64,000 bases of DNA, taken from contig JADJJR010000001.1 of assembly GCA_016706425.1 (NCBI GenBank), positions 701,973-765,972 of the forward strand, given 5' to 3'. The position numbers were made by a program, and so were the translations under genes. Positions 4,542 to 47,385 of this stretch are shown one piece after another. Position 1 is the first letter of the stretch; every line of letters starts with the position of its first letter. Under the pieces are notes generated by a model. That model made no database searches. It was not told where the DNA came from and saw only the letters and a program-made list of their open reading frames with translations. The stretch comes from Elusimicrobiota bacterium. Its GTDB lineage: Bacteria; Elusimicrobiota; Elusimicrobia; FEN-1173.

Positions 4542-4577
4542 TTTAAAAGTGGCGCCAACCCGGAGAGGGATGCTGTT

Positions 4578-4784: not shown

Positions 4785-4894
4785 TTCCATTTGGATTGGG
4801 TGGGGGGAATTGAAAGCGGTGGATCTTCTGGACCTCGCCCGGCGGGCGCTCAAGGCCGCGCGGGTCGTGGCCCCCAGCGCCCGACCGAATCCGC

Positions 4895-4900
4895 TATAAT
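4895..4900 (+). promoter_or_regulatory. candidate -10 box (TATAAT) upstream of ppx
   Basis: A perfect TATAAT lies 12 nt before the ppx ATG at 4913. No clear -35. This would give a very short leader. Confidence 0.25.
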
Positions 4901-4912
4901 CCCGTCGAGAAC

Positions 4913-29514: not shown

Positions 29515-29604
29515 GGAGGGATGGGAGAGCGGTTGAATCCGCCGCACTCGAAATGCGGTAGGGGCGCAAGCTCCTCGTGAGTTCAAATCTCACTCCCTCC
29601 GCCA
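29515..29604 (+). tRNA. tRNA-Ser(CGA), type II
   Basis: Colinear with E. coli tRNA-Ser(CGA): acceptor GGAGGGA/TCCCTCC, discriminator G, anticodon loop CTCGAAA, long variable arm, T-arm GTGAGTTCAAATCTCAC, encoded CCA. Confidence 0.8.
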
Positions 29605-31178
29605 TATGTGAAACCCCCCTCGGGGGAAGAAAGGCCCAACGGCGAATCGTCGTTGGGCCTTTCGCTTGTACGGGCGGAGTCGTCCGACAGCGTCCGAGTC
29701 GTCGTCCCCGGTCGAAATCCAACCCTCAAAGCGGTCGAATTCTTTCTATTTCCCGCGCTCCGCGCGGCGGTGGCGGAGTCCAACACCATCGGACTTTTAC
29801 CGTCGAGCGGACGGGCGGAGTCCCCGTCCCGCCCGGTCGTCCTCCCCGCGTCAACCTCCGGGGCGGGACCGTCCACAACGAAGTCCACACCGATGCTCTT
29901 TTTCGAATAGCGGACCCTTTCGATCCACTTCCGAACCAAAAGGGATTTCTCGATTCCGGTTGTGCGCGCACATGCCTTTACAAATGCTTTGAGGTTTTTT
30001 TGGAGCAATTCGGGGGTAAAGTTGTAAACATCTGGTAGCGGTTCAACACCACTCCCCCTGGGGCGAGTGGTTTGATTTTGATGGGAATTCACCAAGTTTT
30101 TCAAATATTCGGTGTCCTCCGAAATCCGTAGGAGGTTGGAATAGACCGCGTCATGGAGGCGCTCCGCGCCGATTTGGCGGGTGCCGCAAGCGTCCTTTCC
30201 ACTGTGTCCCACCTTCGAACATCGGTAATAGTAGTACTTGTGCCCGTTTTTCTTGAGCTTGCTTGAAAACGCCACGCCCATGACGGAACCACATTCCCCG
30301 CATTTGATGATCCCGGCGAAAGGAAGGTGGGAATGGGTTTCCGTATGGAAGCGGGGCGATTCGGTCATGAGCTTTTGAACGTGGTTGAACAAGTCCTCCG
30401 AAATAAGGGGCGGGTGCTGGCCGGGATGAATTTTCCCCTTATGGACGATCTTCCCGGTGTAGACGTTTTTCCTCAACATTTGCCAAATGGCTGAATCCCC
30501 GAAAGGCTTCCCACGGCGGGAGAGAATCCCCTTTTCCTTAAGCATCCGGAGGATCGCCCGGATGGAGCGGGTTTTGACGTAGGTTTCAAAGATTTGTTTG
30601 ACGATCTGGTCGCGCGGCGGGTCGATGACGAGGGCGGCGTTTTCCGCCTTGTATCCATAAGGAGGTTGGCCGCCATGATAGAGGCCGCGCTTGACCCGCT
30701 GGATCACCTTATCTTTCACGCGCTCGGAAGCGAGCTCCCGCTCGAACTGAGCGAAGGTCAGCATGATGTTGCGAAGGAGACGGCCCGAGGGCGTGGAGGT
30801 GTCGAACCGCTCCGTCACCGAAATGAAAGAAGCCTGATACTTTTCAAGGAATTCGATCATCTGATAGAAGTCGCGGGGGGAGCGGGTTAGACGGTCGATC
30901 TTGTAAGTGATGACAAGCTGGATTTGCCCGGCCCGGATATCATCGATCATCCGTTTGAGGGCCGGGCGGTTCATGTTGGCCCCGGTGAAACCGGGGTCGG
31001 AATAGACATTAAAGATTTCAAACCCCTCCTGGCTGGCGATGAAGGAGCGGATGCGGTCCTCTTGGGCCTCGCAAGAATTGAACTCGACCTCGGCTTGGGC
31101 GTCGGTGCTTACGCGGGTGTAGATGGCGCAACGGGTGATTTTCCGTTCATTTTCCGTCGGGGTGGTTAAAGCTTGCAT
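29583..31178 (-). CDS. large serine recombinase (resolvase catalytic domain + recombinase domain + zinc-ribbon). The C-terminal ~120 codons run through the inverted repeat into tRNA-Ser and are probably not genuine.
   Basis: Catalytic AIYTRVSTDAQ, recombinase-domain motifs, zinc ribbon CGECG..C..C. GGAGG SD. The body is lower in GC than the flanks. Confidence 0.8.
   Translation of the reverse strand: MQALTTPTENERKITRCAIYTRVSTDAQAEVEFNSCEAQEDRIRSFIASQEGFEIFNVYSDPGFTGANMNRPALKRMIDDIRAGQIQLVITYKIDRLTRSPRDFYQMIEFLEKYQASFISVTERFDTSTPSGRLLRNIMLTFAQFERELASERVKDKVIQRVKRGLYHGGQPPYGYKAENAALVIDPPRDQIVKQIFETYVKTRSIRAILRMLKEKGILSRRGKPFGDSAIWQMLRKNVYTGKIVHKGKIHPGQHPPLISEDLFNHVQKLMTESPRFHTETHSHLPFAGIIKCGECGSVMGVAFSSKLKKNGHKYYYYRCSKVGHSGKDACGTRQIGAERLHDAVYSNLLRISEDTEYLKNLVNSHQNQTTRPRGSGVEPLPDVYNFTPELLQKNLKAFVKACARTTGIEKSLLVRKWIERVRYSKKSIGVDFVVDGPAPEVDAGRTTGRDGDSARPLDGKSPMVLDSATAARSAGNRKNSTALRVGFRPGTTTRTLSDDSARTSERPNDDSPLGLSSPEGGFTYGGGSEI
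29601..29957. repeat. left copy of a ~357-bp inverted repeat. It begins at the tRNA-Ser 3' end and contains the 3' end of the serine recombinase ORF.
   Basis: The reverse complement recurs at 31863-32205. Identical spurious ORFs are translated from both copies. Confidence 0.8.
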
Positions 31179-31262: not shown

Positions 31263-31490
31263 ATGAATACCAGCCTTTCGGAAAGCCTTAAGCGGTTGCG
31301 GAAGGCCCACGGCCTGACGCAACAAAAGCTCGCCCAAGAGGCGGGCGTCTCGCTGATCGTCGTCACCAAGGTGGAGCAAGGCTTCACCAAAGATCCCGCC
31401 ATGTCCTCCCTCGTCAAAATCGCCGATGTCCTGGGCGTCTCCATTGACGAACTGATCGGGCGGACCGTTCCCCACAAGTCAAAAAATTAA
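31263..31490 (+). CDS. XRE-family helix-turn-helix transcriptional regulator (Cro/CI-like)
   Basis: HTH LTQQKLAQEAGVSLIVVTKVEQG. Divergent from the recombinase across an AT-rich promoter region. Confidence 0.75.
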   Translation: MNTSLSESLKRLRKAHGLTQQKLAQEAGVSLIVVTKVEQGFTKDPAMSSLVKIADVLGVSIDELIGRTVPHKSKN

Positions 31491-31862
31491 ACCATGACAG
31501 CCGCGTCAATGGGCCGCCATGTGGCCCGTTGGCGCGGCTGTTTTAATGGGGCCGTTCTTCAGCCGGGCCGGAAGGCGGGCCGATGAAAGGGGTAAGCGGG
31601 CCTCTGGATTTCGGGCGCGAAAAAGGGGTGGCTTAGCGGGCCTTGGGTTTCCGGGCGCGAAAGCTTTTCCCGCTTTTGACCCTGCTTGGGGCTTTGAATC
31701 AGCGTGGGTCACACCTTTTTTATTTTCTCCTCTTCCCGACGGGGAGAGGCCGGGAGAGAGGTTCCGGCTGTCCCTTCCCCCCAGACGGGGGAAGGGAGGC
31801 AGGGAAGGGGGCTCCTCCTGGGGGTGGGTGTGCGCGCGGTGTTGGAATCGAGAAATCCCTTT

Positions 31863-32205
31863 TGGTTCGGAAGTGGATCGAAAGGGTCCGCTATTCGAAA
31901 AAGAGCATCGGTGTGGACTTCGTTGTGGACGGTCCCGCCCCGGAGGTTGACGCGGGGAGGACGACCGGGCGGGACGGGGACTCCGCCCGTCCGCTCGACG
32001 GTAAAAGTCCGATGGTGTTGGACTCCGCCACCGCCGCGCGGAGCGCGGGAAATAGAAAGAATTCGACCGCTTTGAGGGTTGGATTTCGACCGGGGACGAC
32101 GACTCGGACGCTGTCGGACGACTCCGCCCGTACAAGCGAAAGGCCCAACGACGATTCGCCGTTGGGCCTTTCTTCCCCCGAGGGGGGTTTCACATATGGC
32201 GAGAT
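31863..32205. repeat. right copy of the ~357-bp inverted repeat. Its outer end is a degenerate tRNA T-arm/acceptor remnant (GGGATTTCAAATATCTCGCCA, in reverse orientation).
   Basis: Reverse complement of 29601-29957. Confidence 0.8.
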
Positions 32206-33719
32206 ATTTGAAATCCCGCGAAATAAGGCCCGACTTCTCTTCCCAAATATAACACATAGCTACTGGGGAACCTATCGTCAAACCGGGCAATACTACCTCC
32301 GCCCTTCTAAATTGTCGGTTGATGATGAACTCACGACCATATAGCGCCCCTTGGGTTGCCGTTCCCCTCGCCCGCGTGCGGGAGAGGGTGCCCGGACGGG
32401 GCCGGAGAGGGCGGACGTTTCCCTCGCCCCTTGGGAGAGGGTGGCCGAAGGCCGGGTGAGGGGCCGAATTTTCCGTCGGGAATTCATCCTTCACCTTTCA
32501 ATAATGAATTTGTGACGGTTATACCCGCCGCCTTCCAGCGCGGGACACACCGCGCCGCGTCGTCTTCGCTGATCACCATGACGAGAAGGGACGGCGTTCC
32601 GCGCCTCGCGTTCCCGTCGGTCACATCGCCGCATCGTCGTCACTGGCGAAGTGTGACGAGAGGATGGACAACGCCGCCGCGTCCCGTTGTCCATCCGACA
32701 TCCCGCCGCGTCGTCGTCCCTGAGTGGCGGCGTCATCGTTGGCGGGGACAGCACCCGCCGCCATGTCACGGCGGGAAGGAATCCACAGCCACACGCCGAC
32801 ATGATCCCGCCGCCCGTCCTCGTCGTCCCGCCGGATGGATGGACACCGCCGCCGGGCTTCGTCTTTGTCCCGGCCGGAGGGATAACGGCCCCGGCTGTCG
32901 TCCCCTGGAAAACCGGAAGCCACCGCCGCCGGGAGAAAACCCCCGCCCTGTTTCGTGAATCGGGGACCGGGGATCGTGATCCGGCCGCGTGGGGATGATC
33001 CCGCCCGGTGTCGTTTTCCCGACGGATGGACGCCGCCCGCCGCGAAAACCAGAAGAAGCCACCCCCCGGAAAGAAGCGAGTCCCGCGCCCGGAAAGAAAA
33101 CCCGGGCGCTTGAACATGGCCGGGGAAAAGGCGGGGCGACCGTGGCGCTCCGCCGGAAAACCCCGGCGCTGTGTCGCTGGCGGGGGAAGGGGATCATCGC
33201 CCGGGCGCTCGGACAGAAACCCCCGCCCTGTGTCGTCCGGGGGAGAGACGGGGGCGCGGCCCGGCCCGGCACGAGAGACGTGCGCCGGTCCAGGCCGCTC
33301 GGTCGTCGCTGACGGTTAAACGTCCGGTCCGGCGGAGTGACGGCACCCGCTCCGGCCTTCGGAGAAAAACCGCACCGGCCGCCGCCACGAAAAACGGGCG
33401 GCGTCGGCCGGTGCCCCGCTTCCCTCGCCGCGTCGGCGGCAGAGAACGCCGCCGCCGCACCTCGGCCCGCTGTGCTGGCGGACGGACGCCCGGCGCGCCG
33501 CACGAAAAACTTGCGCGGCGCACCTCCTCGGGGCGACTGTTTCGTTTCCGCTCCGGTCTTCGGCCAAACCAAACCACCCCCCCGCAGAGTGTCGCCCTCC
33601 CGGACTTGACCCGCCGTCGCCCGGTGCAGGTCACGCCCCCGCCCGCCGTTGGCGGGCCCGCTGTCCGGGCCGGGGGGCCGGGTCGTTGGCCGGTGGCCTT
33701 TTGGGGGGGCGCGCGCACA
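32192..33719. repeat. 1.5-kb non-coding GC-rich structured repeat, copy A (island-left). It consists of many short hairpins whose loops carry GAAAAC / GAAAACCCC-type motifs.
   Basis: Near-identical inverted copy at 50478-51996. Every ORF inside is low-complexity (R/G/P-rich) and matches its twin, so the region is judged non-coding. Confidence 0.8.
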
Positions 33720-33917
33720 TAGGCCTTACCCTTCCTTTTATGATTTCCTTCAAATGGCGTCCGTCGTTGGGGGGCTTGGGCTCACCTCGCGGGAGCCAGG
33801 CCCCCCGCCTTTGGACATCCTTTAAAGGCGGTCTTGCGTGGCCATGAGGTTCGGCCGCCAAGTCCGCCGGGTTTTCCCGCCGCCGGGAGAGATTCCCCCT
33901 TCCGGCGGCGGGCGCGA

Positions 33918-34112
33918 TTATTCCGACCAACCAACGATTTTGACCTGATGACCATCGATCCATGTTTTCCCATGTCCAGCCGTGGGTTCGATGAGGTAGT
34001 CCACCGCGTTTGGCTTCGGACGCACGTCCCGGATGATGACGGAGACTTCCAAGCCTCCTGTCTGAATCATGCCCTCTCGCCCAACTGCCCGCTGCTCGTC
34101 GCTCAAAGACAT
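33918..34112 (-). CDS. hypothetical small protein (64 aa), divergent from the XRE gene
   Basis: Strong GAGGAGG SD 5 nt upstream of the internal Met MSLSDEQ. Confidence 0.4.
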   Translation of the reverse strand: MSLSDEQRAVGREGMIQTGGLEVSVIIRDVRPKPNAVDYLIEPTAGHGKTWIDGHQVKIVGWSE

Positions 34113-34189
34113 TTTAGCCTCCTCGGTAAAACCCTTATTACATTCCAATTTGGCATATGACATTATGGAAACTATCTTATCAGAACACT

Positions 34190-34411
34190 ATGAAAAAGAC
34201 TATCTATTCGCGGGAACATAAAGGATTGATCGCCCGGCTTAAGAAGGCACGGGAAGCTGCGGGACTTCAACAACAGGATGTCGCCCGACTGTTGAAGCGT
34301 ACCCAGTCTTATGTGTCAAAACTCGAATCTGGGCAGCGCCGGGTTGACGTAGTCCAGCTTAAAACGCTGGCAAGAATTTATAAGAAGCCTTTAGAACACT
34401 TCATTGGATAA
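34190..34411 (+). CDS. XRE-family HTH transcriptional regulator
   Basis: HTH LQQQDVARLLKRTQSYVSKLESGQ. First gene of the low-GC defence block. Confidence 0.65.
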   Translation: MKKTIYSREHKGLIARLKKAREAAGLQQQDVARLLKRTQSYVSKLESGQRRVDVVQLKTLARIYKKPLEHFIG

Positions 34412-34435
34412 AAGACCTTATTCTCAGGTTATCAC

Positions 34436-35422
34436 ATGACCACTACCACCCTTTCCCCCGGACTCAAAGAAGCCTTTGATAAACTAGTTCGAGGAACACC
34501 TGAAGACATAAAGGCCTATCTCACAAACATCGAAACATCCCTACCGTTAGCCGGCACAAAGGCCAATATTCATTGCCATACCATCGCACTGGACGGTCAG
34601 AAATTCCCCCGGATTAAAGATTTGGCCAAGTTCCTTTCTTTTAAAATCATCGATTATTCCATCCCCAGAAAAGAGATCGATCGTGCGAAAGAACACTTGA
34701 CCAAGACAGGATCAGCAGCAAAAGTTGCCGAGCTTCAAAAGAAAGCCGCCTCACTTTTCTCTAGCTTGGAGAAAAGTGGGGAGGGTGGTGAGCTGCTCTT
34801 GTATCTTCTGGTCGAATATTTTCTTCAACTCCCACAAGTGATGTGTAAGATGCCACTAAAGACAAATTCAGAAGTCCACTACCACGGTATTGATGGCATC
34901 CATGCATCCGTGGATAAGGACACAAATAATCTCGCGCTCTATTGGGGGGAATCGAAGCTCTATAAAGACGTGAATGCCGCGATATCTGCCTGCATTTCTA
35001 GTATCCAACCTTTCCTTGTTCCGAAAGGAGGCTCGGGCGATCCACGCGAAAGGGACCTTCAGCTCATGCGGGACAACCTGGACCTAAGTGACCCGGCACT
35101 TGAGACCGCCCTATTCAAGTATCTTGACCCTGACGATCCTATGTATAAGAAACTTGAGTACCGGGGCGCCTGCCTCATTGGATTCGATCACAAGGCATAT
35201 CCCAATACTCCGAATTCAAAGACTGAAGAGGTTGTTTGTGCGGAAATAAAAACGGGTCTTGCCGATCAAATTGCCTTTCTAAAAGAGCAAGCAATCTCTG
35301 CCTCCCTTGCCTCCTTTTCTCTCGAAGTTTTTTTCGTCCCGTTTCCGTCCGTTCAGGAATTTCGTGACGCCTTTGCTGAGGAGATAGGGACGCGTGAGCC
35401 TCCAAGATCGCCTTCTAAATAG
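34436..35422 (+). CDS. hamA: HamA-like protein (Hachiman effector candidate, DUF1837-like) with a PD-(D/E)xK-like motif
   Basis: 328 aa, low GC. Contains SGEGGELLLYLLVEYF and IDGIHASVDKD...YWGESKLYKD (D...ESK). Immediately followed by, and overlapping, a large SF2 helicase gene. Confidence 0.5.
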   Translation: MTTTTLSPGLKEAFDKLVRGTPEDIKAYLTNIETSLPLAGTKANIHCHTIALDGQKFPRIKDLAKFLSFKIIDYSIPRKEIDRAKEHLTKTGSAAKVAELQKKAASLFSSLEKSGEGGELLLYLLVEYFLQLPQVMCKMPLKTNSEVHYHGIDGIHASVDKDTNNLALYWGESKLYKDVNAAISACISSIQPFLVPKGGSGDPRERDLQLMRDNLDLSDPALETALFKYLDPDDPMYKKLEYRGACLIGFDHKAYPNTPNSKTEEVVCAEIKTGLADQIAFLKEQAISASLASFSLEVFFVPFPSVQEFRDAFAEEIGTREPPRSPSK

Positions 35423-37934
35423 CCCGGGCTTCCGTCGTCAAATGCATGCACTGACCCTTGAGTCGGTGCGTGGGAGCTTTGCAAATCTGAAACCCCCAGC
35501 CGATGCCCAGCCAGTATCACATGATTGGCAACACTTACTCCTCACAGCAAGCCTAATGGCTCAGGCTCCCAAAGAGCGACCACAAGCGACGGCACTCCGT
35601 ATCGCTCACCATTGTCTCAACTCCACAACAAATGGAACTAACCACCGCGTGGCCGCAGCAATCGTTTTGGATTTATTGACCAATAGTCCATCTATTAAGC
35701 TTGCGATAGAAAAAAACCTCCTAGACGAGGGTTTTATGGAGCGAGTTCCAGCCCCCCTACGCCTTGATGTATTTAAACGGGCCGCCGAATTTTCGGTTTA
35801 TCGCGGTGACAAAGTAATTCATCTCAATCGGTTTCAAAAAGACGTCCATAATGCCCTTGAGTCGGCAGAATGCGTCAGCATATCAGCGCCAACGTCCGCT
35901 GGAAAATCGTTTATCCTCGAAAATCATGTGAGAGAGTATGTAACTGACTCTGGGAAAAAGAACATCGTATTTGTGGTTCCCACCAGGGCACTCATACAAC
36001 AGGTCGAGACGGACTTACAATCCATTTTCTCTGATTCATCTATTAAACCGATAATCACCTCTGTCCCTCAGCTTCCACCGAACTGGGATCAACAATCGAA
36101 TATTCTTGTCTACACCCAGGAAAGACTTCAGTGGCTAATGAATGATGCTCCGGACGAGTTTAAACTTGACCTACTCATTATTGACGAAGCACAAAAGGTC
36201 GGCGATGGTGCCCGTGGGGTTCTTTTACAGCAAGCGATTGAATTGGCCACTTCAAGATGGACGAGCTGCAAGGTTATATTCTCTAGTCCCATGTCTAGCA
36301 ATCCAGAAATGTTATTTCGCCACACAGGAAAAACTGGCGTCCGAGTAATTTCAGAATTAGTCACCGTGAATCAAAATCTCATATGGGTCTCGCAGGTTCC
36401 CCGTGACCCCAAACAATGGACCGCAGAGCTTTGTGTGCATGATGGAAAGTCATTGCTTGGGACAATTTCGTTAGAACAGCGTCCGACTGACCCTCGGAAA
36501 AGGTTGGCCTTTATCGCCCAGGCCATGTCTGACGCCAGTGGCGGAACTTTAATTTATGCTAGTGGACAAGCAGATGCCGAAAAGATGGCAATCTTGCTGG
36601 CCAATTCAATTTTAGAAGATGTTATAGACTCGGGAATATCGGACTTAATAGATCTAGTTGCCAAGACCATTCATCCAAAGTATGCGCTAGTAAGCACTCT
36701 GGCTCGTGGCGTTGCTTTCCATTACGGCAATATCCCTCTTTTAATTCGCACTGAGATCGAGCGACTATTTAAGGAGGGCAAGATACGATACTTGGTTTGC
36801 ACATCAACACTCATTGAGGGGGTGAACCTCCCTGCCCGCTCAATATTTGTTCGCCGCCCAACCAAGGGGCCAGGCAGACCTATGAGTGAAATTGATTTCT
36901 GGAATATGGCGGGGAGAGCGGGAAGGCTCGGCAAGGAATTCCAGGGAAATATTATCTGTGTTGATCCTGATAACTGGGAAGAACCACCGCCACAAAAACG
37001 CGTCCGATACAAAATAGAGAGGACACTGGATAAAGTGACTTCTCAAGCCACATCACTTATAAATTTCATTGACTCCGGAAAGACGATGAAAGGGGGGCCG
37101 AGTAAAGCTGAGCTTGAGCATACTCTCGCATACCTCTTCCTTCAACACTCTCGCCATGGGTCTATTAGCAAAGGCCCCTCTGCCCCCGAGTGCGATCTGG
37201 CTATCTTGCAACAGATTGACGCCAGCCTAAAATCCGTAAGTGACAAAGTCACTTTGCCGATAGAAATCCTTACTCGCAACCCTGGGGTAAATCCATTGGG
37301 TCAACAAAGCCTTCTCAAATACTTTCTGGAATATGACGATCAAGCCACGGAGCTTATCCCCACCCTTCCTGAAAGCGACGATGCTTTTACCTCCTATGTT
37401 CGCCTTCTTAACCGCATTTGCACCCACCTGTCTGGGGACCCCACGCAGCTCAGTCCATATTTTGCGGTATTGGCAATTAACTGGATGCGTGGTTATCCGC
37501 TGTCAAGAATCATTGCCGACAATATCAAGTATTGGGGAAAGCATCCCGAGAAGAAGAAGACAGTGCCGGTGATTATTCGAGACTCAATGCGTGACGTGGA
37601 GGAGTTCGCGAGGTTTAAATTTGTGAAATATTCGGCATGCTATGTTGACATCCTGCGCTTCTATTTCCGAACAACTGGACATGCCGCCCATTTAGGACAA
37701 ATTCCAGATCTGAATATCTGGCTCGAATTTGGTGCGTCTCAGCAAACCCAGATTTCTCTGATGGGAATAGGCCTCTCTCGTCAAACAGCAATTTCTATTT
37801 CTGAGCTTATTCCGCAACATAACATGGATAGGGATGCCGCCATCGCATGGCTCAAACAATTAGATTGTGACAGCCTAGATCTCTCCCCGATCGTCATTGC
37901 GGAGTTAAAAAAGGCCCGCAGCGCTTTGTTGTAA
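35394..37934 (+). CDS. hamB: HamB-like superfamily-2 DExH/DEAQ-box helicase (Hachiman helicase candidate)
   Basis: 846 aa. Motif I APTSAGKS, motif II LIIDEAQ, motif III-like SSPMSS, motif VI MAGRAGRLG, CTSTLIEGVNLP. The GTG start overlaps the hamA end by 29 nt; an alternative ATG lies at 35442. Confidence 0.6.
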   Translation: MSLQDRLLNSPGFRRQMHALTLESVRGSFANLKPPADAQPVSHDWQHLLLTASLMAQAPKERPQATALRIAHHCLNSTTNGTNHRVAAAIVLDLLTNSPSIKLAIEKNLLDEGFMERVPAPLRLDVFKRAAEFSVYRGDKVIHLNRFQKDVHNALESAECVSISAPTSAGKSFILENHVREYVTDSGKKNIVFVVPTRALIQQVETDLQSIFSDSSIKPIITSVPQLPPNWDQQSNILVYTQERLQWLMNDAPDEFKLDLLIIDEAQKVGDGARGVLLQQAIELATSRWTSCKVIFSSPMSSNPEMLFRHTGKTGVRVISELVTVNQNLIWVSQVPRDPKQWTAELCVHDGKSLLGTISLEQRPTDPRKRLAFIAQAMSDASGGTLIYASGQADAEKMAILLANSILEDVIDSGISDLIDLVAKTIHPKYALVSTLARGVAFHYGNIPLLIRTEIERLFKEGKIRYLVCTSTLIEGVNLPARSIFVRRPTKGPGRPMSEIDFWNMAGRAGRLGKEFQGNIICVDPDNWEEPPPQKRVRYKIERTLDKVTSQATSLINFIDSGKTMKGGPSKAELEHTLAYLFLQHSRHGSISKGPSAPECDLAILQQIDASLKSVSDKVTLPIEILTRNPGVNPLGQQSLLKYFLEYDDQATELIPTLPESDDAFTSYVRLLNRICTHLSGDPTQLSPYFAVLAINWMRGYPLSRIIADNIKYWGKHPEKKKTVPVIIRDSMRDVEEFARFKFVKYSACYVDILRFYFRTTGHAAHLGQIPDLNIWLEFGASQQTQISLMGIGLSRQTAISISELIPQHNMDRDAAIAWLKQLDCDSLDLSPIVIAELKKARSALL

Positions 37935-37969
37935 TGCTCCCCATTAGTCAAGCGGCGACGAAGTGAGAA

Positions 37970-38025
37970 TTGTGGCTACCTATCCCCTTGGAGTCCAAAA
38001 AACGGTACGGGCCTCCCGAGATGAG
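37970..38025 (+). repeat. direct repeat DR1 (ATTGTGGC...CCTTGGAGTCCAAAAA.CGGGCCTCCCGA.GATGA) upstream of the CHAT gene
   Basis: The same ~57-bp sequence recurs at 40290-40438, with a palindromic element inserted. Confidence 0.6.
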
Positions 38026-38079
38026 TTGACAGGCCGAAGATCTCCAAGAAAATCTAGAAAATAGCTTGGAAGGACGCAT

Positions 38080-40290
38080 ATGAAAAAAATGGGCCATTTT
38101 ATGGGCCGATCGATTCTCCGCATCCCATACCGGTATATTGGTCCCCGTGTTCCAAATACTTGGCGCCCCCCTTTCCTCTCCGACAGATGGCTATTAACTT
38201 TAGGCGCATTTCCTCAGAATTTACTTTCCTTGGTCAATCCCACCGTTGCCTTCAAGATGATATCTCAACTTGCCAATACTGGCGGGCATGACTTCGGCGT
38301 TATCTATGATGAAAATGTGGCTGATTGTGTTGAAAACCAGATTGAGAACCACCATCCGATAGGCATACTGATCGTAGACACACATAAAAAAGAGGTTTTT
38401 CAGCATCTAGCGAAGATGTTTCGTAAAACCTTTATTACCGCATTTGATGATAATGTGGCTAAAGAACTAAAGGCTGATCCTGTCTGCAATGATAAATTTT
38501 TAGATTTCGATCCAATTGTTGTCGCAGATGAAATACGACGACATCTTCCAATGGCCCTAAGAATGTGTGGGGAACTGATGGGGGACCCATTCCCTGATGA
38601 AATAATTGCAAGAATGACAGCGCAATCTGAGTTGATTAAACGCGGCGATCAGAAAATGTTTTATGACTTCGCGCCATGCTATCCAAATTACTTAAACATT
38701 GCCCAGATAAAGGGGTGGGGCTGGAACGCTACCCATTTACCTAAAAAGGTTGAACATCATCGACGGATTAGGGCGGCGATAAGATCTGTCAAAAAGCTAG
38801 ACATCAATCATTGGGTTATAAACCAAGAGTCTCCCCCCCTAATCCTGACCTTTCCATTTATTAATCGTCGTGAAGAGTCGATCAAATTGCGGCGCATTCG
38901 AAACGAGATCCCTGCCAAAGCCAAGCCAGAAATTTTCAAACTAATGCGTGGCTTTAAAATCGAGCAATCAAAAGACTATCTGTGGTATTTTGACCAAGAG
39001 CTAGAATCCATCTCTGGCTTGATTATTCGAGAGAGGAGCAAACATCTTGCATTCCTCGATAACATGCAGTTCCTTCATTCAGGGTTTAGATGTTCTCCCT
39101 CTCTCCGGGTTCCGGCCAAAGGAGCCTCAATCTATGACTGTTTGGCCCCTTTTGAACCTCGGGAGTTTCGACGGAATTATTCGCCCAAAGGCGTTTTTGA
39201 AAACATTTCAAAGCTTGGTGAGAAATTGGCGGAATCGATCCCATCTGAATACTTGGATATTCTCAGGCAGGCCAAAAGACAGATGGTCGTGATAAGTGAT
39301 TTGCCAATTGAGTGGTTGATGATTGACGGAGTTCCATTGGGGTTTAAGAATGACGTATGTAGGTTGCCGGAAAATCCAGGCGCCACCGTTATGACTCAGT
39401 TCGCAGTAAACAGCCAAGTTTTCTTTTCAATTCCTTCCGAGATTTTAAAAAAGACTCTTGTCGTGTGCCTTTCGCCAGGGGACGATGAAATCTTACGCGC
39501 ATTTCAGAATATCAAACGGACGCACGAATCCAGTGGTGTGAGGTTTGAAACTTGCAGAAGCATGGAGCATCTCAAGCAGGTGGCAAACGAATCTGATTGG
39601 GACCTAATCATTTACTTCTCCCATGGATCATCAAGGAAAGACAGGTCGGACTCCGTTCTCTTAATGGATGGGGTTGAGATATCCGGTCAAGAGATTATTG
39701 ATAACGGCCTGTCTGCCCCGCTCGTTGTGCTGTTCGCCTGTGAAATGGCCCCACTGTTCGGTTATCTCAACCCCATTCCCCAGGCATTTTTCGAAGCTGG
39801 GGCCATGTCCGTGGTAACAACAATTCTTCCGATTTCAATCAATAGTGCCTTTTTGTTATGTAATCGAATACTCATCAATCTTTCGACGGCAGCAAAAACA
39901 AAGATCCATCATAATTGGCTAGATTTCGTCAGCCACAACCTCAGAACTTCACTTTTCGAGGACATGATCCATAGAATCCTCGACAGCAATAAGCTTTCCT
40001 ATTTGATCCCCAAGATGGATTATGAAAAAAAAGCGCCTTGGCTTGGAAAGGCGATGAATCCCCTGACCCGTGTTGCCGCGTATAAGGAACTATCAGAATC
40101 GGTCTCCAGATGTTTTCCAGTGGAATCGAGGCCCCGGGTCAAAGATGTGCTGGATAAGAACGAATTCTTACCAGAGGGCCTTTTCTTCAGCATATGGGGA
40201 AGAGCTGATCTAATCCCATTTGACTCATGGAGCAACAAGCTCAATATAGAACAGAACTCCGGGTATGATTCATCACAAGTTCGCGAATGA
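38080..40290 (+). CDS. CHAT-domain (caspase-like cysteine protease) protein. The N-terminal ~390 aa have no recognisable homology.
   Basis: 736 aa, low GC, GGAAGGA SD. CHAT hallmarks: DLPIEWLMIDGVPLGF, catalytic His in DLIIYFSHGSS, catalytic Cys in PLVVLFACEMA. Confidence 0.75.
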   Translation: MKKMGHFMGRSILRIPYRYIGPRVPNTWRPPFLSDRWLLTLGAFPQNLLSLVNPTVAFKMISQLANTGGHDFGVIYDENVADCVENQIENHHPIGILIVDTHKKEVFQHLAKMFRKTFITAFDDNVAKELKADPVCNDKFLDFDPIVVADEIRRHLPMALRMCGELMGDPFPDEIIARMTAQSELIKRGDQKMFYDFAPCYPNYLNIAQIKGWGWNATHLPKKVEHHRRIRAAIRSVKKLDINHWVINQESPPLILTFPFINRREESIKLRRIRNEIPAKAKPEIFKLMRGFKIEQSKDYLWYFDQELESISGLIIRERSKHLAFLDNMQFLHSGFRCSPSLRVPAKGASIYDCLAPFEPREFRRNYSPKGVFENISKLGEKLAESIPSEYLDILRQAKRQMVVISDLPIEWLMIDGVPLGFKNDVCRLPENPGATVMTQFAVNSQVFFSIPSEILKKTLVVCLSPGDDEILRAFQNIKRTHESSGVRFETCRSMEHLKQVANESDWDLIIYFSHGSSRKDRSDSVLLMDGVEISGQEIIDNGLSAPLVVLFACEMAPLFGYLNPIPQAFFEAGAMSVVTTILPISINSAFLLCNRILINLSTAAKTKIHHNWLDFVSHNLRTSLFEDMIHRILDSNKLSYLIPKMDYEKKAPWLGKAMNPLTRVAAYKELSESVSRCFPVESRPRVKDVLDKNEFLPEGLFFSIWGRADLIPFDSWSNKLNIEQNSGYDSSQVRE

Positions 40291-40438
40291 TTGTGGCATT
40301 GAACCTAGGCGCGTAGGGGACGTTGTCAACTTAGAAACTTATCCCCACCCCTTCACCTCAATTAAATTGACAACGTCCCCTACACCGCTTAGAATCCCAC
40401 TCCTTGGAGTCCAAAAATAGGGGCGGGCCTCCCGATGA
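40290..40438 (+). repeat. direct repeat DR2, starting at the CHAT stop codon. It is the DR1 sequence split by a 71-bp palindromic MITE-like element (40313-40383, 17-bp perfect inverted repeat GTAGGGGACGTTGTCAA / TTGACAACGTCCCCTAC).
   Basis: ATTGTGGC and CCTTGGAGTCCAAAAATAGGGGCGGGCCTCCCGATGA match DR1. Confidence 0.6.
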
Positions 40439-40459
40439 TCTGGGAGACCCGCCCTTTTG
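40421..40459. terminator. bidirectional intrinsic terminator (GGGCGGGCCTCCC-loop-GGGAGACCCGCCC, T-tract on both sides) between the convergent CHAT gene and the 135-aa gene
   Basis: 13-bp GC-rich stem, then TTTTG downstream and an A-tract upstream. Confidence 0.6.
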
Positions 40460-40462
40460 CCG

Positions 40463-40870
40463 CTAATCTTCATCAAGTTCTAGGACGGTAATGACTGCCT
40501 CCGCATCATCGCCGGGGCCGCAGAGGGCCTTGAGCGTGACGAGCGGCGGCGTGCCTGCCTTGTTATCGTTGCGGACGTGGAGACTGAAGCGGATGTAATC
40601 CCCGCCATCGGACTGGCGGATGGCGTGGCGTAACATGAACAGAAGATCAAACAGCCGCCCCTTGGAATCCTGACAGGGGACACCTGCCGGGACCTCGACA
40701 TACCGATCCCACACCGCCCGAGTGAGCGCGATGGGGAAGCGGAACCGAAGCTCCTTGTATTCCGACGAATCAGACACGTCAACCAAGAACCCATCCTCAA
40801 TGGCCTGGGCGCGAGTGTATCGGCTGATGACCGGCGCGTCACTGAACAATCCCTGCTTTTGCGTGTGCAT
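40463..40870 (-). CDS. conserved hypothetical protein (135 aa), high GC
   Basis: AAGGAGG SD 5 nt upstream of Met38 of the tracked ORF. No homology recognised. Confidence 0.45.
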   Translation of the reverse strand: MHTQKQGLFSDAPVISRYTRAQAIEDGFLVDVSDSSEYKELRFRFPIALTRAVWDRYVEVPAGVPCQDSKGRLFDLLFMLRHAIRQSDGGDYIRFSLHVRNDNKAGTPPLVTLKALCGPGDDAEAVITVLELDED

Positions 40871-42114: not shown

Positions 42115-43353
42115 ATGAGCAAATCGCTGTTTTTCCTTATTCTCCTGACCCTTTTGTCCCCCGTTCTCGTTCGGGGTTTGGAAGGGCCGGGGGAGGACGG
42201 ACTGACCTTGTCCGGCGTCATCGCAGAAGTAAAAGAAAAGAACCCGTCATTATCATCGGCCCGGTGGCGCTTGGGCCTGTTGGAGGCGGATGTGGCCGTC
42301 AACTCGGCGTTTCCCAATCCGAGTTTGGAAATGGAGAAATCCGCTTCCGGCGATACCGACGGGTATGAGGTGAAAGCCTCTCAGCCCGTGCCGTTGACGC
42401 GCAGGGCGGGCACGGCCCGCTCGGCGGCCCTGGCCGAATTTGAGGCGGGGAAATTGGAACTGGAAGCCCTGGAGACTGTGATCCTTGCCGAGGCCCGCAA
42501 AGCCTGGTACGCGTTGCGCATTTCCAAAGAACGCCGCCGTTTCGAGGAGACGAACCTTAAATTCTCCATGGACCTCCTCAACAAGATCGAAATGAGGATG
42601 CAGACCGGGGAGGCGGGCAACTCGGACTTGGCCCGGTCCAAGGTGGAAGTCACCCGCAGCAGGCTCCACCTTCAGGAAGCGGAGACGATGGTGAGCCGCG
42701 CGGCGGGTGAATTGAACAGTCTCATGGGCCGACGGCCGGACGCGACGGTGGCCGTGTCGGAAAACGGCGGTTTCAGCTTGGCACCCGTTCCTCCGACCCT
42801 GGAACCGTTGGAACATTACACGGCCCAGGCCCTGACCGCTCGCGCCGAGCCGCGCGCTTTGGCCTTCAGCGAAAAAGCGGCGGACCTGACCGTGAAGCTT
42901 GAAAAGGGAAAGCGCTTGCCCGTACCGGAAGTGGGGTTCATACGCGGGGTTGACGGCGGGGAGGGATATTCCAAGCTGTCTTTGGGTTTGGAACTGCCGC
43001 TCTGGTACAACAACAAGGGCGAAATTAAAATGGCGCTGGCCCGCAAAGCCTCGCTGGGTTACGAGGGAAAACGCCTGGAACTGGACATCCGGCGGGAGGT
43101 CCATGGTGCTTGGCTGGAGATGGGGCTGGCGCAAAAGCGTCTGGCCGCCGCGCGGGAAACCGTGTTCATGCTCAACGACCTCCGACGAACGGCGGCGCAG
43201 GAATATCTGTCCGGGAAAATCGGCCTGACGTCCTTTTACGAAACCAATCGGGTGTTCCTTGAGGAAAACATCAGCTATCTGGACGCATTAAAAGAATTCT
43301 ATGAGAGGACCGCGCAGTTGGATGCCGTGGTCAATAAAGGAGACGAGAAATGA
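42115..43353 (+). CDS. outer-membrane efflux protein (CzcC/CusC, TolC family)
   Basis: Signal peptide, two TolC-like repeats, 412 aa. First gene of a three-gene RND operon. Confidence 0.8.
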   Translation: MSKSLFFLILLTLLSPVLVRGLEGPGEDGLTLSGVIAEVKEKNPSLSSARWRLGLLEADVAVNSAFPNPSLEMEKSASGDTDGYEVKASQPVPLTRRAGTARSAALAEFEAGKLELEALETVILAEARKAWYALRISKERRRFEETNLKFSMDLLNKIEMRMQTGEAGNSDLARSKVEVTRSRLHLQEAETMVSRAAGELNSLMGRRPDATVAVSENGGFSLAPVPPTLEPLEHYTAQALTARAEPRALAFSEKAADLTVKLEKGKRLPVPEVGFIRGVDGGEGYSKLSLGLELPLWYNNKGEIKMALARKASLGYEGKRLELDIRREVHGAWLEMGLAQKRLAAARETVFMLNDLRRTAAQEYLSGKIGLTSFYETNRVFLEENISYLDALKEFYERTAQLDAVVNKGDEK

Positions 43354-44294
43354 AAACGTTCATCCATGTTTTGATGTCTGCGGCCTTCATCGGCCTTGTG
43401 GGTTGCGGCGGCGGAACCTCCGGCGCATCGGAGGAGCACGCCGCCGAAGCGGGAGAAAGCGGCTCGCACAACGCGGGAACCATCGAGGTGTCCGTCGAGG
43501 CGCAGAAGGAGGGCGGCATCATGACGGAAACGGTGAAACAATCCTCCGTGCCGGAAACCTTCCAGGCCATGGGCCGCGTCCTTCAGGACGCGCAAAAGCC
43601 CCACCACGTGACGGCCGGCGGACCCGGCCGGATTGAAACCCTCGCCGTTTCCCTGGGGCAGGCGGTGAACCCGGGCGACGTGCTGGCGGCCATCAAATCC
43701 CCCGCCGGGGGCCTGTCGAACGTGACCGCCCCTCACAAGGGCATCGTGACGGCGTTGCACGTCGGCGAAGGGGACTCTGTCGACGAAATGACGTTCCTTT
43801 TCACGTTGACCGACGTGGACCCGCTTTGGGGAGTGTTGGACATTCCCGAGCGAAGCCTTGGACAGGTGCGGCCGGGGCAAAAGGTTGAAATACGGACCAC
43901 GGCCTATCCGCGTGAAGTGTTCAAAGGGAAGGTCGCCTTTATTTCCCCCGAAATCGATACGGTCAGCCGCACGGTCAAAACGCGGGTGGCGATCGAGAAC
44001 CCCGCCGGGCTCATGAAGTTCGGCATGTTCATCGACGCCGCCGTGCACACCGGCGGGCATTTTCAAGGGGCCTCGGTTCGCGCCGACGCCGTGCAGAACG
44101 GCCCCACCGGGCCTTTTGTTTTCGTCAAGACGGGAGAGTCTTCGTTCGTTCCGAGGCCTGTTGAAATCGGCCGGGAGAAAGACGGCTTGGTGGAGATACT
44201 CAAGGGCGTCGCCCCCGGGGACAGCGTGGCGGTGGAAGGGTCCTTCCTGTTGAAATCGGAAATGATGAAGGAGCAGATGGGGGAGGGACATTGA
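43350..44294 (+). CDS. RND efflux periplasmic adaptor (CzcB/CusB family), lipoprotein
   Basis: Lipobox LVGCGG. HlyD-like beta-barrel and lipoyl motifs. AAGGAG SD. ATGA overlap with the upstream gene. Confidence 0.8.
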   Translation: MKTFIHVLMSAAFIGLVGCGGGTSGASEEHAAEAGESGSHNAGTIEVSVEAQKEGGIMTETVKQSSVPETFQAMGRVLQDAQKPHHVTAGGPGRIETLAVSLGQAVNPGDVLAAIKSPAGGLSNVTAPHKGIVTALHVGEGDSVDEMTFLFTLTDVDPLWGVLDIPERSLGQVRPGQKVEIRTTAYPREVFKGKVAFISPEIDTVSRTVKTRVAIENPAGLMKFGMFIDAAVHTGGHFQGASVRADAVQNGPTGPFVFVKTGESSFVPRPVEIGREKDGLVEILKGVAPGDSVAVEGSFLLKSEMMKEQMGEGH

Positions 44295-44295
44295 C

Positions 44296-47200
44296 ATGTT
44301 GAACAACATGATCGCTTTTTCCATCCGGCACAAATGGTTGGTGCTGGCGGCCGCGTTTCTGGTGGCCTGCGTGGGGGCGGCTTCTCTGCGTTCCCTTCCC
44401 ATCGACGCTTTTCCCGACGTGACCAGCGTGCAGGTGGAAATCGTCTCTACGGCGGCGGGCAAGTCCCCCCTCGAAGTGGAAAAACTGGTGACCTATCCGG
44501 TGGAGAACGTGTTGCGCGGCCTGCCGGGCCTCACGCAATTGCGTTCGGCGTCTAAATACGGGATTTCGGTGGTGACTGTCGTCTTTAAGGACGGCACGGA
44601 CCTGTACTTCGCCCGGCAACAGGTGTCCGAGCGGTTGACGGAGGCGCGCGAGAAGCTGGGGGAGGGCATTGAAATCGCCATGGGTCCGCCCGCCACGGCC
44701 ATGGGTGAAATCTACCAATACACCCTCGACACGGGACGGGAGACGGAGACGCCCGCCCAATTGACCGAGATGCGCACCCTGCAGGATTGGGTGGTGTCGC
44801 CGATCCTGAAAAGCGTGGCGGGCGTGGGCGACATCAATTCGTTCGGCGGTTTCATCAAGGAATATCAAGTGGTGGCTCTGCCGGACTTGATGACGCAGTA
44901 CAACGTGAGCCTGAAGGAGCTTTACGACGCCATCGGCCGCAACAACTCCAACGTGGGAGGCGGGTTGCTGGAATCGTCGGGGGAACAGCTCCTCATACGC
45001 GGGTTGGGGCTGATTAAAAGCGCGGCGGAGCTGGGCGACATCGTGGTGGCGGATCGCGGCGGATCGCCCGTGCTGGTGAAAGACGTCGCCCGCGTGCGGG
45101 AAGGCCATGCCGTGCGCCAGGGGGCGTCGTTCATCGACGGAAAGAAAGAGGCCGTGGGCGGCGTGGTCATGATGCTCAAGGGCGAGAACAGCCGGAAAGT
45201 GGTGGGCCGGGTTTCGGAAAAAGTGGCCGAGATCAACGCGTCCGGGGTGTTGCCCGCCGGAATGAAGATGAAAGCGTTCTACACGCGGGACACCGTGATC
45301 AACAGCAGCGTGGCCACCATCGTCAAGGCGCTGGCGGAGGGCTCCGCCATCGTGGTGGTGGTTCTCTATCTGTTCCTGCTGAGTTTCCGGGGATCGTTCG
45401 TCACCATCATGGCGCTGCCTCTGGCGTCGCTTTTGACCTTCCTGGCCATGCGGCGATTCGGGATTTCCGGCAACCTCATGTCCTTGGGCGGCCTGGCCAT
45501 ATCCATCGGCATGATCATCGATTCGACCATCATCCAGGTGGAGAACGTCTTGCACCACCTGGGCTCCCGCCGGGAGGCCGAGCACAGGGACAAGGCCGTG
45601 GCCGATGCCATCATCGAGGTGAGGAAACCGAGCATCTTCGGCGAGTTGATCATCGCGCTGACGTTCATTCCCATCCTCGCGCTGGAGGGCATCGAGGGAA
45701 AAATGTTCGGGCCGCTGGCGTTGACGGTGATGCTGGCCCTCTTCGCTTCTCTGCTTTTGTCATTGACCGTCATTCCGGCTTTGTGCGCGACGGCGTTGCG
45801 CCCCGCGCCGGACAAGGAAAGTCCGCTCTTGACCTTGGCCGGGCGTTTGTATCGCCCGACCTTGGCGTGGAGCATGGCGCACCCGAGGAAGGTGCTTTTG
45901 GCGGGAGGGCTTCTGCTGGCCGGGTGCCTGGCGCTGGTGCCGCGATTGGGGACGGAGTTCGTGCCGGTGATGGACGAAGGGTCTTTCGATATGGACACCG
46001 GCATTTTGCCCGGAGCCTCCTTGGAAACATCCGCCGGAGCGGCGAAGAAGATTGAACGGATACTCATGGAATTCCCGGAGCTCGAGACGGTGGTTTCCAA
46101 AACGGGCTGGACCGGACGGGCCATCGAGGCGCGCGGGGTGGAGAAGACGGGGTTCCTGGGCGTGCTCAAGCCGCGCAAGGAATGGAAGACGGCGAAAACA
46201 CGGGAGGAGCTTTTCGAGAAGATGCGGGAAGCCTTGGCCGTCATCCCCGGCGTGGTGATCGGTTTCAGCCAGCCGATCCAATGCCGCATCGACGAACTGG
46301 TGGCCGGGACGCGGTCGCAGTTGGCCGTGAGGCTCTTCGGCGACGACCTGGACGTGCTCACCCAAAAAGCCGCCGCCATCGCCGCCGTCCTTGGCGGAGT
46401 GCGGGGCGCGACGGACGTGGCGTTGGAACGGCAGGGCGGGCAGTCCTACGTGAACATCGAGATGAACCGGGGCATGATCTCACGCTACGGGCTGAACGTG
46501 TCCGACATCAACGACGTCATCGAAACCGCGCTGGGCGGTAAATCCGCCGGAGTGGTGTATGAGGGAGACCGGGCCTTCGACATCACCGTGAGGCTGCCGG
46601 AGACCGAAAGGAACTCCCTCACGGCGTTGGGCGAGATCGTGATCGCCTCGCCATCGGGCGCGCGGGTGCCGCTTTCCGTTTTGGCGAGCATCAAGCGCGT
46701 GGAGGGGCCGGTGCAGATCGGGCGGGAATCCGGCAAAAGGCGCATCCTGGTGGAGGCCAACGTGAGCGGCCGGGACCTGGGGGGATTCGTGGCCGAGGCG
46801 CAGGAAAAAATCCGGAAGGCCGTGCCTCTGCCGGAAGGCTATTACCTGACGTGGGGCGGGCAATTCGAGAATCAGCAGAGGGCCATGAAGACGCTGGCCG
46901 TCATCGTTCCGGCGACCATCCTGCTGATTTTTCTTCTGTTGGCCATGACGTTCAACTCCCTGCGGCAAGCCGTGTTGGTCCTTTTGAACTTGCCGCTGGC
47001 GATGGCCGGAGGCATCGCGGCGCTGTTCATCTCCGGGCTGTACCTGTCGGTTCCGGCGGCGGTGGGGTTCATCGCGTTGTTCGGGGTGGCCGTTCTTAAC
47101 GGCGTGGTGCTGGTGACGTACATCAATCAATTGCGCGCCAAAGGCATGCCCATGGAGGAGGCAATCCCCGAAGGGTGCAAACGACGGATGCGTCCCGTGC

Positions 47201-47385
47201 TCATGACCGCGCTCATCACCGTGGCGAGCCTGACGCCGATGCTCTTCGCCGTCGGCCCCGGTTCCGAAGTTCAAAGGCCGTTGGCCGTGGTGGTGATCGG
47301 CGGATTATTGACGTCCACCGCGCTGACGCTGATCATCCTGCCGGTGTTGTACGCCTATTTCTCCCGAGGGGAGAGACCGGCGTGA
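44296..47385 (+). CDS. heavy-metal efflux RND permease (CzcA/CusA family)
   Basis: 1029 aa, 12-TM RND architecture. N-terminal IAFSIRHKWLVL...AFPDVT typical of HME-RND. GGAGGG SD. Confidence 0.9.
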   Translation: MLNNMIAFSIRHKWLVLAAAFLVACVGAASLRSLPIDAFPDVTSVQVEIVSTAAGKSPLEVEKLVTYPVENVLRGLPGLTQLRSASKYGISVVTVVFKDGTDLYFARQQVSERLTEAREKLGEGIEIAMGPPATAMGEIYQYTLDTGRETETPAQLTEMRTLQDWVVSPILKSVAGVGDINSFGGFIKEYQVVALPDLMTQYNVSLKELYDAIGRNNSNVGGGLLESSGEQLLIRGLGLIKSAAELGDIVVADRGGSPVLVKDVARVREGHAVRQGASFIDGKKEAVGGVVMMLKGENSRKVVGRVSEKVAEINASGVLPAGMKMKAFYTRDTVINSSVATIVKALAEGSAIVVVVLYLFLLSFRGSFVTIMALPLASLLTFLAMRRFGISGNLMSLGGLAISIGMIIDSTIIQVENVLHHLGSRREAEHRDKAVADAIIEVRKPSIFGELIIALTFIPILALEGIEGKMFGPLALTVMLALFASLLLSLTVIPALCATALRPAPDKESPLLTLAGRLYRPTLAWSMAHPRKVLLAGGLLLAGCLALVPRLGTEFVPVMDEGSFDMDTGILPGASLETSAGAAKKIERILMEFPELETVVSKTGWTGRAIEARGVEKTGFLGVLKPRKEWKTAKTREELFEKMREALAVIPGVVIGFSQPIQCRIDELVAGTRSQLAVRLFGDDLDVLTQKAAAIAAVLGGVRGATDVALERQGGQSYVNIEMNRGMISRYGLNVSDINDVIETALGGKSAGVVYEGDRAFDITVRLPETERNSLTALGEIVIASPSGARVPLSVLASIKRVEGPVQIGRESGKRRILVEANVSGRDLGGFVAEAQEKIRKAVPLPEGYYLTWGGQFENQQRAMKTLAVIVPATILLIFLLLAMTFNSLRQAVLVLLNLPLAMAGGIAALFISGLYLSVPAAVGFIALFGVAVLNGVVLVTYINQLRAKGMPMEEAIPEGCKRRMRPVLMTALITVASLTPMLFAVGPGSEVQRPLAVVVIGGLLTSTALTLIILPVLYAYFSRGERPA

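Follow-up and report, generated by a model that had tools for sequence, protein, structure and literature searches.

A probable mini defence island combining a type I Hachiman pair with a divergent Borvo-like CHAT protease gene in an Elusimicrobiota genome

Overview

We analysed a 64,000-nucleotide stretch of DNA (the window; positions 701,973 to 765,972 of the forward strand of contig JADJJR010000001.1, assembly GCA_016706425.1) from an Elusimicrobiota bacterium. A 6.3-kb block of low GC content in this window carries four co-oriented genes on the plus strand, which encode an XRE-family regulator, HamA, HamB and a 736-residue protein with a CHAT domain. The block, at about 34,120–40,460, is in our judgement very likely a mini defence island gained by horizontal transfer, in which two mechanistically independent abortive-infection systems, Hachiman and a Borvo-like system, stand behind the XRE regulator. 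On this reading, an uncultured Elusimicrobiota species from wastewater has a type I Hachiman and a divergent Borvo-like gene among its defences. The two were seen travelling together in one low-GC block, and the annotation is otherwise routine.

Layout and composition of the block

The first gene of the block (34157–34411, plus strand) encodes an XRE-family helix-turn-helix (HTH) regulator of 84 residues from the first ATG, or 73 residues in the NCBI form, which starts at the ATG at 34190. It ends 24 nucleotides 5′ of hamA (34436–35422, plus strand, 328 residues). hamA is located directly 5′ of hamB (35394–37934, plus strand, 846 residues, GTG start) and overlaps it by 29 nucleotides, and the same gene order is present in the related loci L026–L028. 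A gap of 145 nucleotides separates hamB from the bovA-like gene (38080–40290, plus strand), which encodes the CHAT protein. An earlier note, made from the sequence alone, had described three plus-strand genes of 328, 846 and 736 residues with an XRE regulator ahead of them; this arrangement was confirmed at the positions given here, and the regulator is an HTH_3 gene.

The same note had set a low-GC block in a background of about 67% GC. The block itself is as described, with a GC content of 0.43–0.51 over 34000–40500 between flanks of 0.58–0.74, but the background is lower, at about 0.63 across the window. At the right edge of the block, the GC content rises to 0.61 beyond 40500. The GC content at third codon positions (GC3) is 0.47–0.49 in the four block genes (0.486 in the XRE gene, like hamAB and the CHAT gene) versus 0.69–0.84 in nine host genes, and the composition of the block is foreign to its surroundings.

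The hamA-hamB pair

Hachiman, a system of the HamA nuclease and the HamB helicase, was reportedly described by Doron in 2018. By their sequences, the hamA and hamB genes of the window are a canonical type I Hachiman. HamA matched the Pfam family PF08878 (HamA) over residues 61–303 (1.6e-61, profile positions 1–230 of 230), which is its sole Pfam domain, and the PADLOC model HamA1 (PDLC00163) over residues 10–319 (3.4e-121, profile positions 5–313 of 314). NCBIfam contains no family model matching HamA. The D-GEXK nuclease motif is intact (D153 and G171-E172-S173-K174), and the motif SGEGGELLLYLL is present at residues 114–125. HamB matched the PADLOC model HamB1 (PDLC00186) over residues 2–842 (6.4e-292, profile positions 5–858 of 864) and the Pfam families DEAD, ResIII and Helicase_C. 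Its motifs are likewise intact, namely APTSAGKS at 165–172 (motif I/Walker A), DEAQ at 264–267 (motif II) and AGRAGR at 506–511 (motif VI). The assignment of the first gene to DUF1837/HamA with a D...ExK motif, and of the second to a HamB-like superfamily 2 (SF2) helicase of the DEAQ type with motifs I, II and VI, both proposed in the earlier note, therefore hold.

A search at E ≤ 1e-30 gave upwards of 4255 homologues of HamB in a database from which a word-indexed search recovered 25 BovA-like proteins. The nearest other HamB in the databases searched is at most 65% identical, and the closest relatives, at 65% and 57% identity, belong to plain hamA-hamB pairs.

Among solved structures, the nearest relatives of the window HamA and HamB were chains A (6.8e-8) and B (6.9e-50) of 9wh1, a 528-residue "HamA C-terminal domain-containing protein" and an 853-residue helicase. 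This entry is nearer to the window proteins than are the canonical HamAB structures 8vx9 and 8zue. Judged by the sizes of its chains and by a preprint description, 9wh1 is probably the trypsin-HamAB complex.

The CHAT gene as a divergent member of the Borvo family

Borvo is said to have been introduced by Millman in 2022 as a single-gene CHAT protease defence system. On the evidence of homology, the CHAT gene of the window is a divergent member of this known kind with a distinct N-terminal half. Its product matched a sole PADLOC family, BovA (PDLC03831; 1.1e-52, 177.6 bits), with residues 225–713 aligned on profile positions 215–711 of 720. The match to Pfam CHAT was weak (1.4e-8, residues 477–605), and NCBIfam contains no family model matching the protein. 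The catalytic residues are H515 in YFSHGSS and C554 in LVVLFACEMA, the same His and Cys from which the presence of a CHAT domain had been noticed earlier. Both are invariant in an alignment of 24 sequences. These homologues, obtained by the word-indexed search, have about 690–790 residues each and can be aligned over their full length.

All nine relatives tested matched BovA alone in PADLOC. Two of them, P0002 and P0003, aligned across nearly the whole BovA profile, and the profile alignment starts at positions 7–40 for P0002, P0003 and a Leptospira protein of the clade. An exhaustive profile search had roughly 1,500 hits and, at E ≤ 1e-30, reached 549 cluster representatives (50% identity). 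Collinearity with the window protein from about residue 5 to 735 holds for most of the best-scoring matches. In hhalign, the clade aligned with canonical Klebsiella BovA with a probability of 99.6% and an E value of 7e-25 over the C-terminal ~390 residues only (columns 345–732); the window protein itself is 24% identical to Klebsiella BovA over 257 residues. Because the clade is populous and collinear and shares its C-terminal part with canonical BovA, the CHAT gene can be placed as a divergent Borvo member. A scan of IMG/VR revealed no BovA-like genes. The proposal that the third gene is an independent single-gene CHAT defence module is thus supported as to its nature; such a module is, however, not undescribed, as it matches BovA of Borvo.

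A model of the CHAT protein was built with AlphaFold2 from the family alignment (predicted local distance difference test score, 74.5; predicted template modelling score, 0.85). In this model, the N-terminal ~320 residues are predicted to form an alpha/beta domain at approximately residues 13–136, followed by helices. The best Foldseek matches were Csx29 TPR-CHAT, gingipain RgpB, separase and SAVED-CHAT. Csx29 was at the top for the full-length model (Foldseek E 3.5e-7 across some 700 columns, template modelling (TM) score 0.28–0.31, identity 11–13%), and SAVED-CHAT gave a partial fold match (TM score 0.16–0.17). The clade, with at least 549 clusters at 50% identity, differs from the E. coli prototype in the N-terminal half; a comparison of this clade with that of the prototype could help to find the sensor domain of Borvo.

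Genomic association of BovA-like genes and Hachiman

We examined the association from both directions. The forward test covered 25 genome loci with BovA-like proteins and flanks of up to 10 kb, from Bacteroidota, cyanobacteria, Opitutus, Leptospiraceae, Fibrobacteria and Acidobacteriota. HamA or HamB was found in none of these loci, either by tblastn or by phmmer at E ≤ 1. An all-against-all comparison of four genes on each side gave no shared neighbour family, bar one near-identical pair of loci, and among 136 neighbours the PADLOC families recur at most three times and the Pfam families at most five times. Across the BovA-like loci, the seven further ones mentioned next included, the neighbours comprise many defence or toxin-antitoxin genes, among them RmrA, CapP/CapH, PD-Lambda-2, a type III methyltransferase, a type ISP restriction-modification gene, Lamassu, DUF1156/DUF499, HigBA and MqsA. 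Seven further loci from plasmids and metagenomes brought the total to 32, of which 31 are without Hachiman; the remaining locus (L124) is taken up below, where the reading is weighed.

The reverse test started from 83 loci with a HamB that is 40–65% identical to the window HamB. HamA was detectable in 78 of them, and 47 had at least 2.5 kb of downstream sequence. A tblastn search with 24 BovA-like queries (E ≤ 0.01) found a BovA-like gene in none of the 83. The genes that follow the related hamB genes are of varied size, strand and family; CHAT is absent from the Pfam families listed there. The earlier note had proposed to look for CHAT genes conserved beside hamAB in other genomes; the surveys in both directions showed co-occurrence to be essentially absent, which by the note's own standard counts against its three-component proposal.

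The regulator and the sequences around the CHAT gene

The XRE protein matched the Pfam families HTH_3 (2.1e-12) and HTH_31 (5.4e-12) and the PADLOC models HTH_VI, capH and Control_protein-like. By analogy with characterised homologues, it probably controls transcription of the block. An XRE-like open reading frame (ORF) is located 5′ of hamA in only one of 66 related loci, so it is no conserved component of Hachiman, and the BovA-like loci gave two weak XRE matches only. L128 (640–3657) and L005 (9053–11608) each have a small HTH_3 gene directly 5′ of, and co-oriented with, the BovA-like gene; in L128 it is paired with a Gp49/HigB-like gene. These two cases hint that XRE-type control of Borvo-like genes recurs occasionally.

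A promoter-like site in the hamB-CHAT gap (38026–38053, plus strand; TTGACA, 16 nucleotides, GAAAAT), recognised by its consensus match alone, ends 27 nucleotides 5′ of the CHAT start codon. Twelve promoter-like sites were found in the region, which is not clearly more than in shuffled sequences (7.6 ± 2.6). A Shine-Dalgarno-like GGAAGGA, read from the sequence, also precedes the start codon.

The CHAT gene is bracketed by a direct repeat of 34 nucleotides with 88% identity (about 45 nucleotides in a gapped alignment) and an exact core of 16 nucleotides, CCTTGGAGTCCAAAAA. The downstream copy (40402–40435) is part of a terminator hairpin (−31.3 kcal/mol, z −2.96). The terminator scan located this G+C-rich hairpin at 40421–40454, with 13 pairs, 11 of them GC, and a T-run on the minus strand. 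The hairpin separates the CHAT gene from a convergent DUF6573 gene at the right edge of the low-GC block and is probably a bidirectional intrinsic terminator serving both genes. The upstream copy, at 37986–38019 in the hamB-CHAT gap, matches the left half of the downstream terminator in degenerate form and does not fold into a hairpin (RNA fold z +0.97). Because the downstream copy folds and the upstream copy is a non-folding remnant, read-through from hamAB into the CHAT gene appears plausible. The repeat hints at a modular, cassette-like assembly of the block, possibly in the donor. As proof of a separate insertion of the CHAT gene, it was suggestive but was overruled, because the identical codon usage of the four genes points to one donor.

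Just past the CHAT stop codon there is an inverted repeat (40313–40383) with 21-nucleotide arms, which are 95% complementary, and a 29-nucleotide spacer. It folds into a very stable hairpin, with −38.1 kcal/mol and a z score of −8.8 for 40305–40392. Its right arm holds the −35 element of a promoter-like site (TTGACA, 17 nucleotides, TAGAAT; 11/12) that points into the terminator about 25 nucleotides downstream. Rfam gave no match for the hairpin past the CHAT stop codon; when the block and the entire window were scanned, two tRNAs were the sole matches.

Proposed mode of action

In characterised systems, a HamAB heterodimer surveys DNA; once DNA is damaged, the helicase HamB switches on the nuclease HamA, and all cellular DNA is degraded (PMC12278908). 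The window HamA and HamB, with their catalytic motifs intact, may act in the same manner. They would form a heterodimer in which the HamB helicase surveys DNA, and damage would lead HamB to activate the HamA nuclease, so that all DNA of the cell would be degraded.

Borvo is a rare single-gene system, present in approximately 0.8% of RefSeq genomes (PMC10975372), and activity has been described for a "Borvo-like" system of S. thermophilus (PMC12322248). Borvo of E. coli becomes toxic upon expression of a phage DNA polymerase, which is an abortive-infection behaviour, and phages escape it via mutations within the polymerase's proofreading domain (10.1101/2022.08.27.505566). This trigger is established for Borvo of E. 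coli 403116 only (10.1101/2022.08.27.505566). By analogy, the CHAT domain of the window protein (H515/C554) would presumably be held inactive by the N-terminal alpha/beta and helical region. This region would sense a phage cue and release the H515/C554 protease, and the freed protease would cleave targets in the cell, whereby growth would stop. The diverged N-terminal half of the BovA-like protein may recognise a cue other than phage DNA polymerase.

Alternative explanations

Several observations weigh against the reading of the block as two independent systems, the second of them Borvo-like. The four genes are indistinguishable in GC3 and codon usage and are all foreign to the host; the codon-usage distance between hamB and the CHAT gene (0.052) is even smaller than that between hamA and hamB (0.065). 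This common foreign codon usage indicates that the genes probably arrived jointly, as a single block from one donor. The XRE-hamA-hamB-CHAT linkage is constant in all ten recovered contigs of the same Elusimicrobiota species (GCA_016702405.1 and relatives), a constancy that follows from common descent alone. Neither the terminator scan nor the RNA fold indicated an intrinsic terminator in the hamB-CHAT gap, and the CHAT gene may therefore be co-transcribed with hamAB. An independent adjacency of a BovA-like gene and Hachiman, the sole other one found, is present in L124. As for the name, the window protein scores 177.6 bits on the BovA model versus 736 bits for canonical Klebsiella BovA, whose gene adjoins an AAA ATPase and helicase pair. 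The first ~225 residues of the window protein are located outside the BovA profile match, and its N-terminal ~320 residues were unaligned to canonical BovA in hhalign. "Borvo" as used here denotes a divergent clade, placed by homology.

An "empty site" lacking either the CHAT gene or hamAB was sought and not found; the ten contigs with the neighbouring DUF6573 protein are all arranged alike. In one metagenome-assembled genome of the same species (GCA_016718955.1, locus L119, 10581–12790), the CHAT gene is broken into ORFs of 204 and 537 residues, which reflects either a frameshift or an assembly error, and hamB runs off the end of the contig.

The locus L124 (Logan SRR30894616, 540–12227) is a multi-system defence island. 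Its BovA-like CHAT gene (2038–4227, plus strand) is convergent with the Hachiman pair (hamB, 4321–6996; hamA, 6999–7940). This pair belongs to another Hachiman subfamily (PDLC00185/00154), with approximately 26% identity to the window proteins, and it is directly followed by Lamassu LmuB/LmuC; a trypsin-like/CTD4 gene is also present. The adjacency in L124 is ordinary clustering within a defence island.

An unlikely alternative is that the two systems are independent and yet complementary. Co-regulated by the XRE protein, they would close each other's escape routes and move as a unit, with no direct molecular coupling, and both would respond to phage replication (Hachiman to single-stranded DNA-binding protein or to DNA damage, Borvo to DNA polymerase). 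The published triggers of both are indeed found in the phage replication machinery, and the like donor composition with its apparent co-transfer, the possible read-through transcription and the second adjacency in L124 are consistent with such a partnership. However, beyond the ascertained case the adjacency amounts to one locus in 32, a frequency that chance within defence islands could produce, and the XRE gene is conserved with neither Hachiman nor Borvo-like genes. The XRE upstream region, with its promoter, and the hamB-CHAT gap share no 9-mer or longer, so no common operator is evident, and such an operator was dropped as a candidate.

We give only a very small probability to the first of the two proposals of the earlier note, an undescribed three-component Hachiman in which the CHAT protease is an effector or regulatory arm of HamAB and XRE-hamA-hamB-CHAT is one operon. 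HamB might, for example, activate the CHAT protease on sensing DNA, or cleavage by the CHAT protease might activate or limit HamA. If true, this would give a widespread helicase-nuclease system a new effector arm, but the evidence argues against it. hamB and the CHAT gene are on the same strand across a gap of 145 nucleotides without a terminator hairpin, and the four genes have an identical foreign composition. Their linkage is fixed in every recovered contig of the species, where it reflects shared ancestry only. Against this reading, the start of the CHAT gene is preceded by a promoter-like site and GGAAGGA. A Hachiman with a protease arm has a precedent in the combination of trypsin-HamA with a metallo-β-lactamase (MBL) nuclease, and the nearest solved relative of the window HamB, chain B of 9wh1, probably comes from a trypsin-HamAB complex. 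The window HamA, however, has its own nuclease motif and no protease fusion; because D-GEXK is retained, no replacement effector is needed. L124 offers a second adjacency, yet its pair is convergent with the CHAT gene, belongs to a different subfamily and is located beside Lamassu. In the surveys, none of the 83 related hamAB loci has a BovA-like gene, and 31 of the 32 other BovA-like loci lack Hachiman, with no conserved partner in any. The three-component system was rejected on these two counts together with the intact motif of HamA.

It is also very doubtful that BovA-like CHAT proteins and Hachiman are functionally related in a recurrent manner, with the CHAT gene read through from hamAB and its product acting with hamAB, L124 being a second trace of this relationship. 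The CHAT protein may, in such a relationship, provide for example a second, proteolytic output or a backup when phages inhibit HamAB.

That the CHAT protein is a housekeeping or signalling protease rather than a defence protein, adjacent to Hachiman fortuitously, is scarcely credible. In its favour, CHAT domains are found in many contexts other than defence, the BovA score of 177.6 bits is modest and some homologues have metabolic neighbours (ribonucleotide reductase in L122). Against it, BovA is the sole PADLOC family matched, the gene resides with a defence system inside a foreign low-GC block, the varied neighbourhoods of its homologues contain many defence and toxin-antitoxin genes, and BovA-like proteins have the patchy taxonomic distribution typical of mobile defence genes.

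Comparison with known systems

Compared with type I Hachiman, the window pair differs in nothing essential. Its DUF1837/HamA protein has D-GEXK and is encoded by a gene that overlaps the next one downstream, which encodes an SF2 helicase of about 850 residues. The matches of the two proteins to the HamA1 and HamB1 models are full-length, and the two-gene layout is that of 78 of the 83 related loci. The XRE gene in front of the pair is unusual for Hachiman. With Borvo, the block shares a single protein of about 700–750 residues with a C-terminal CHAT His/Cys domain, the lack of a conserved partner gene and variable neighbourhoods in defence islands. The window protein belongs, however, to a distant clade. 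Because its N-terminal ~320 residues cannot be aligned to canonical BovA, the trigger may differ if this region is the sensor.

In protease-Hachiman, a trypsin-like domain is fused to the N-terminus of HamA and D-GEXK is lost (10.1101/2025.07.28.667249). The protease of this system (HamMAB, or trypsin-HamAB-MBL) activates a separate MBL-fold nuclease (10.1101/2025.07.28.667249, 10.1101/2025.09.03.673762). The window resembles it in having a Hachiman locus with a protease gene in the same block, and 9wh1 is the nearest Protein Data Bank entry. In contrast, the window HamA is unfused and keeps D-GEXK; a separate gene encodes the protease, which is of the unrelated, caspase-like CHAT type. The ORFs scanned between 29.5 and 48.5 kb gave no Lactamase_B match that would indicate an MBL-fold nuclease gene.

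The TPR-CHAT protein Csx29 of the type III-E Craspase was the best full-length structural match, and, according to the model, the window protein likewise has a helical N-terminal region followed by CHAT. It differs in having no TPR match in Pfam. No Cas7-11/gRAMP, Csx30/31 or CRISPR array was found nearby, where the neighbours are the XRE gene, hamAB, the DUF6573 gene and an efflux operon; the sequence from 25 to 50 kb is free of tandem and spaced repeats. The SAVED-CHAT effectors of cyclic oligonucleotide-based antiphage signalling systems (CBASS) and type III CRISPR systems differ from the window protein, which has no SAVED match in Pfam. Assignment to a type III-E, SAVED-CHAT or gasdermin-type CHAT system was rejected because the partner genes and arrays are not present.

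Surroundings of the block

The block is located within a larger island next to smpB and a tRNA-Ser gene, with a large serine recombinase gene nearby. Two segments upstream of the block, 29600–29972 and 31829–32201, form an inverted repeat of 373 nucleotides with 98% complementarity. The left arm begins at the 3′ end of tRNA-Ser(cga) (29515–29604) and spans the part of the recombinase gene (29583–31178, minus strand) that codes for the C-terminus. The repeat could be an invertible segment, a duplication made by the recombinase or an assembly artefact.

The region at approximately 31500–33900 (about 2.4 kb, 64–74% GC) contains no credible ORF, as its long frames give Arg/Pro/Gly-rich nonsense, and the NCBI annotation has no gene between an HTH gene at about 31267–31494 and about 33918. 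This region gave no Rfam match at E < 0.3, and its matches to plasmid DNA span about 60 nucleotides only. Possible explanations are a decayed pseudogene region, a stretch of assembly ridden with frameshifts and a non-coding element.

On the other side of the block, the DUF6573 gene (40463–40870/40981, minus strand; Pfam 1.1e-27) is convergent on the CHAT gene. Downstream of it, at 42115–47385, there is a resistance-nodulation-division efflux operon of the OEP-HlyD/CzcB-AcrB/CzcA type (CzcCBA-like). Both the DUF6573 gene and this operon have a host-like GC content.

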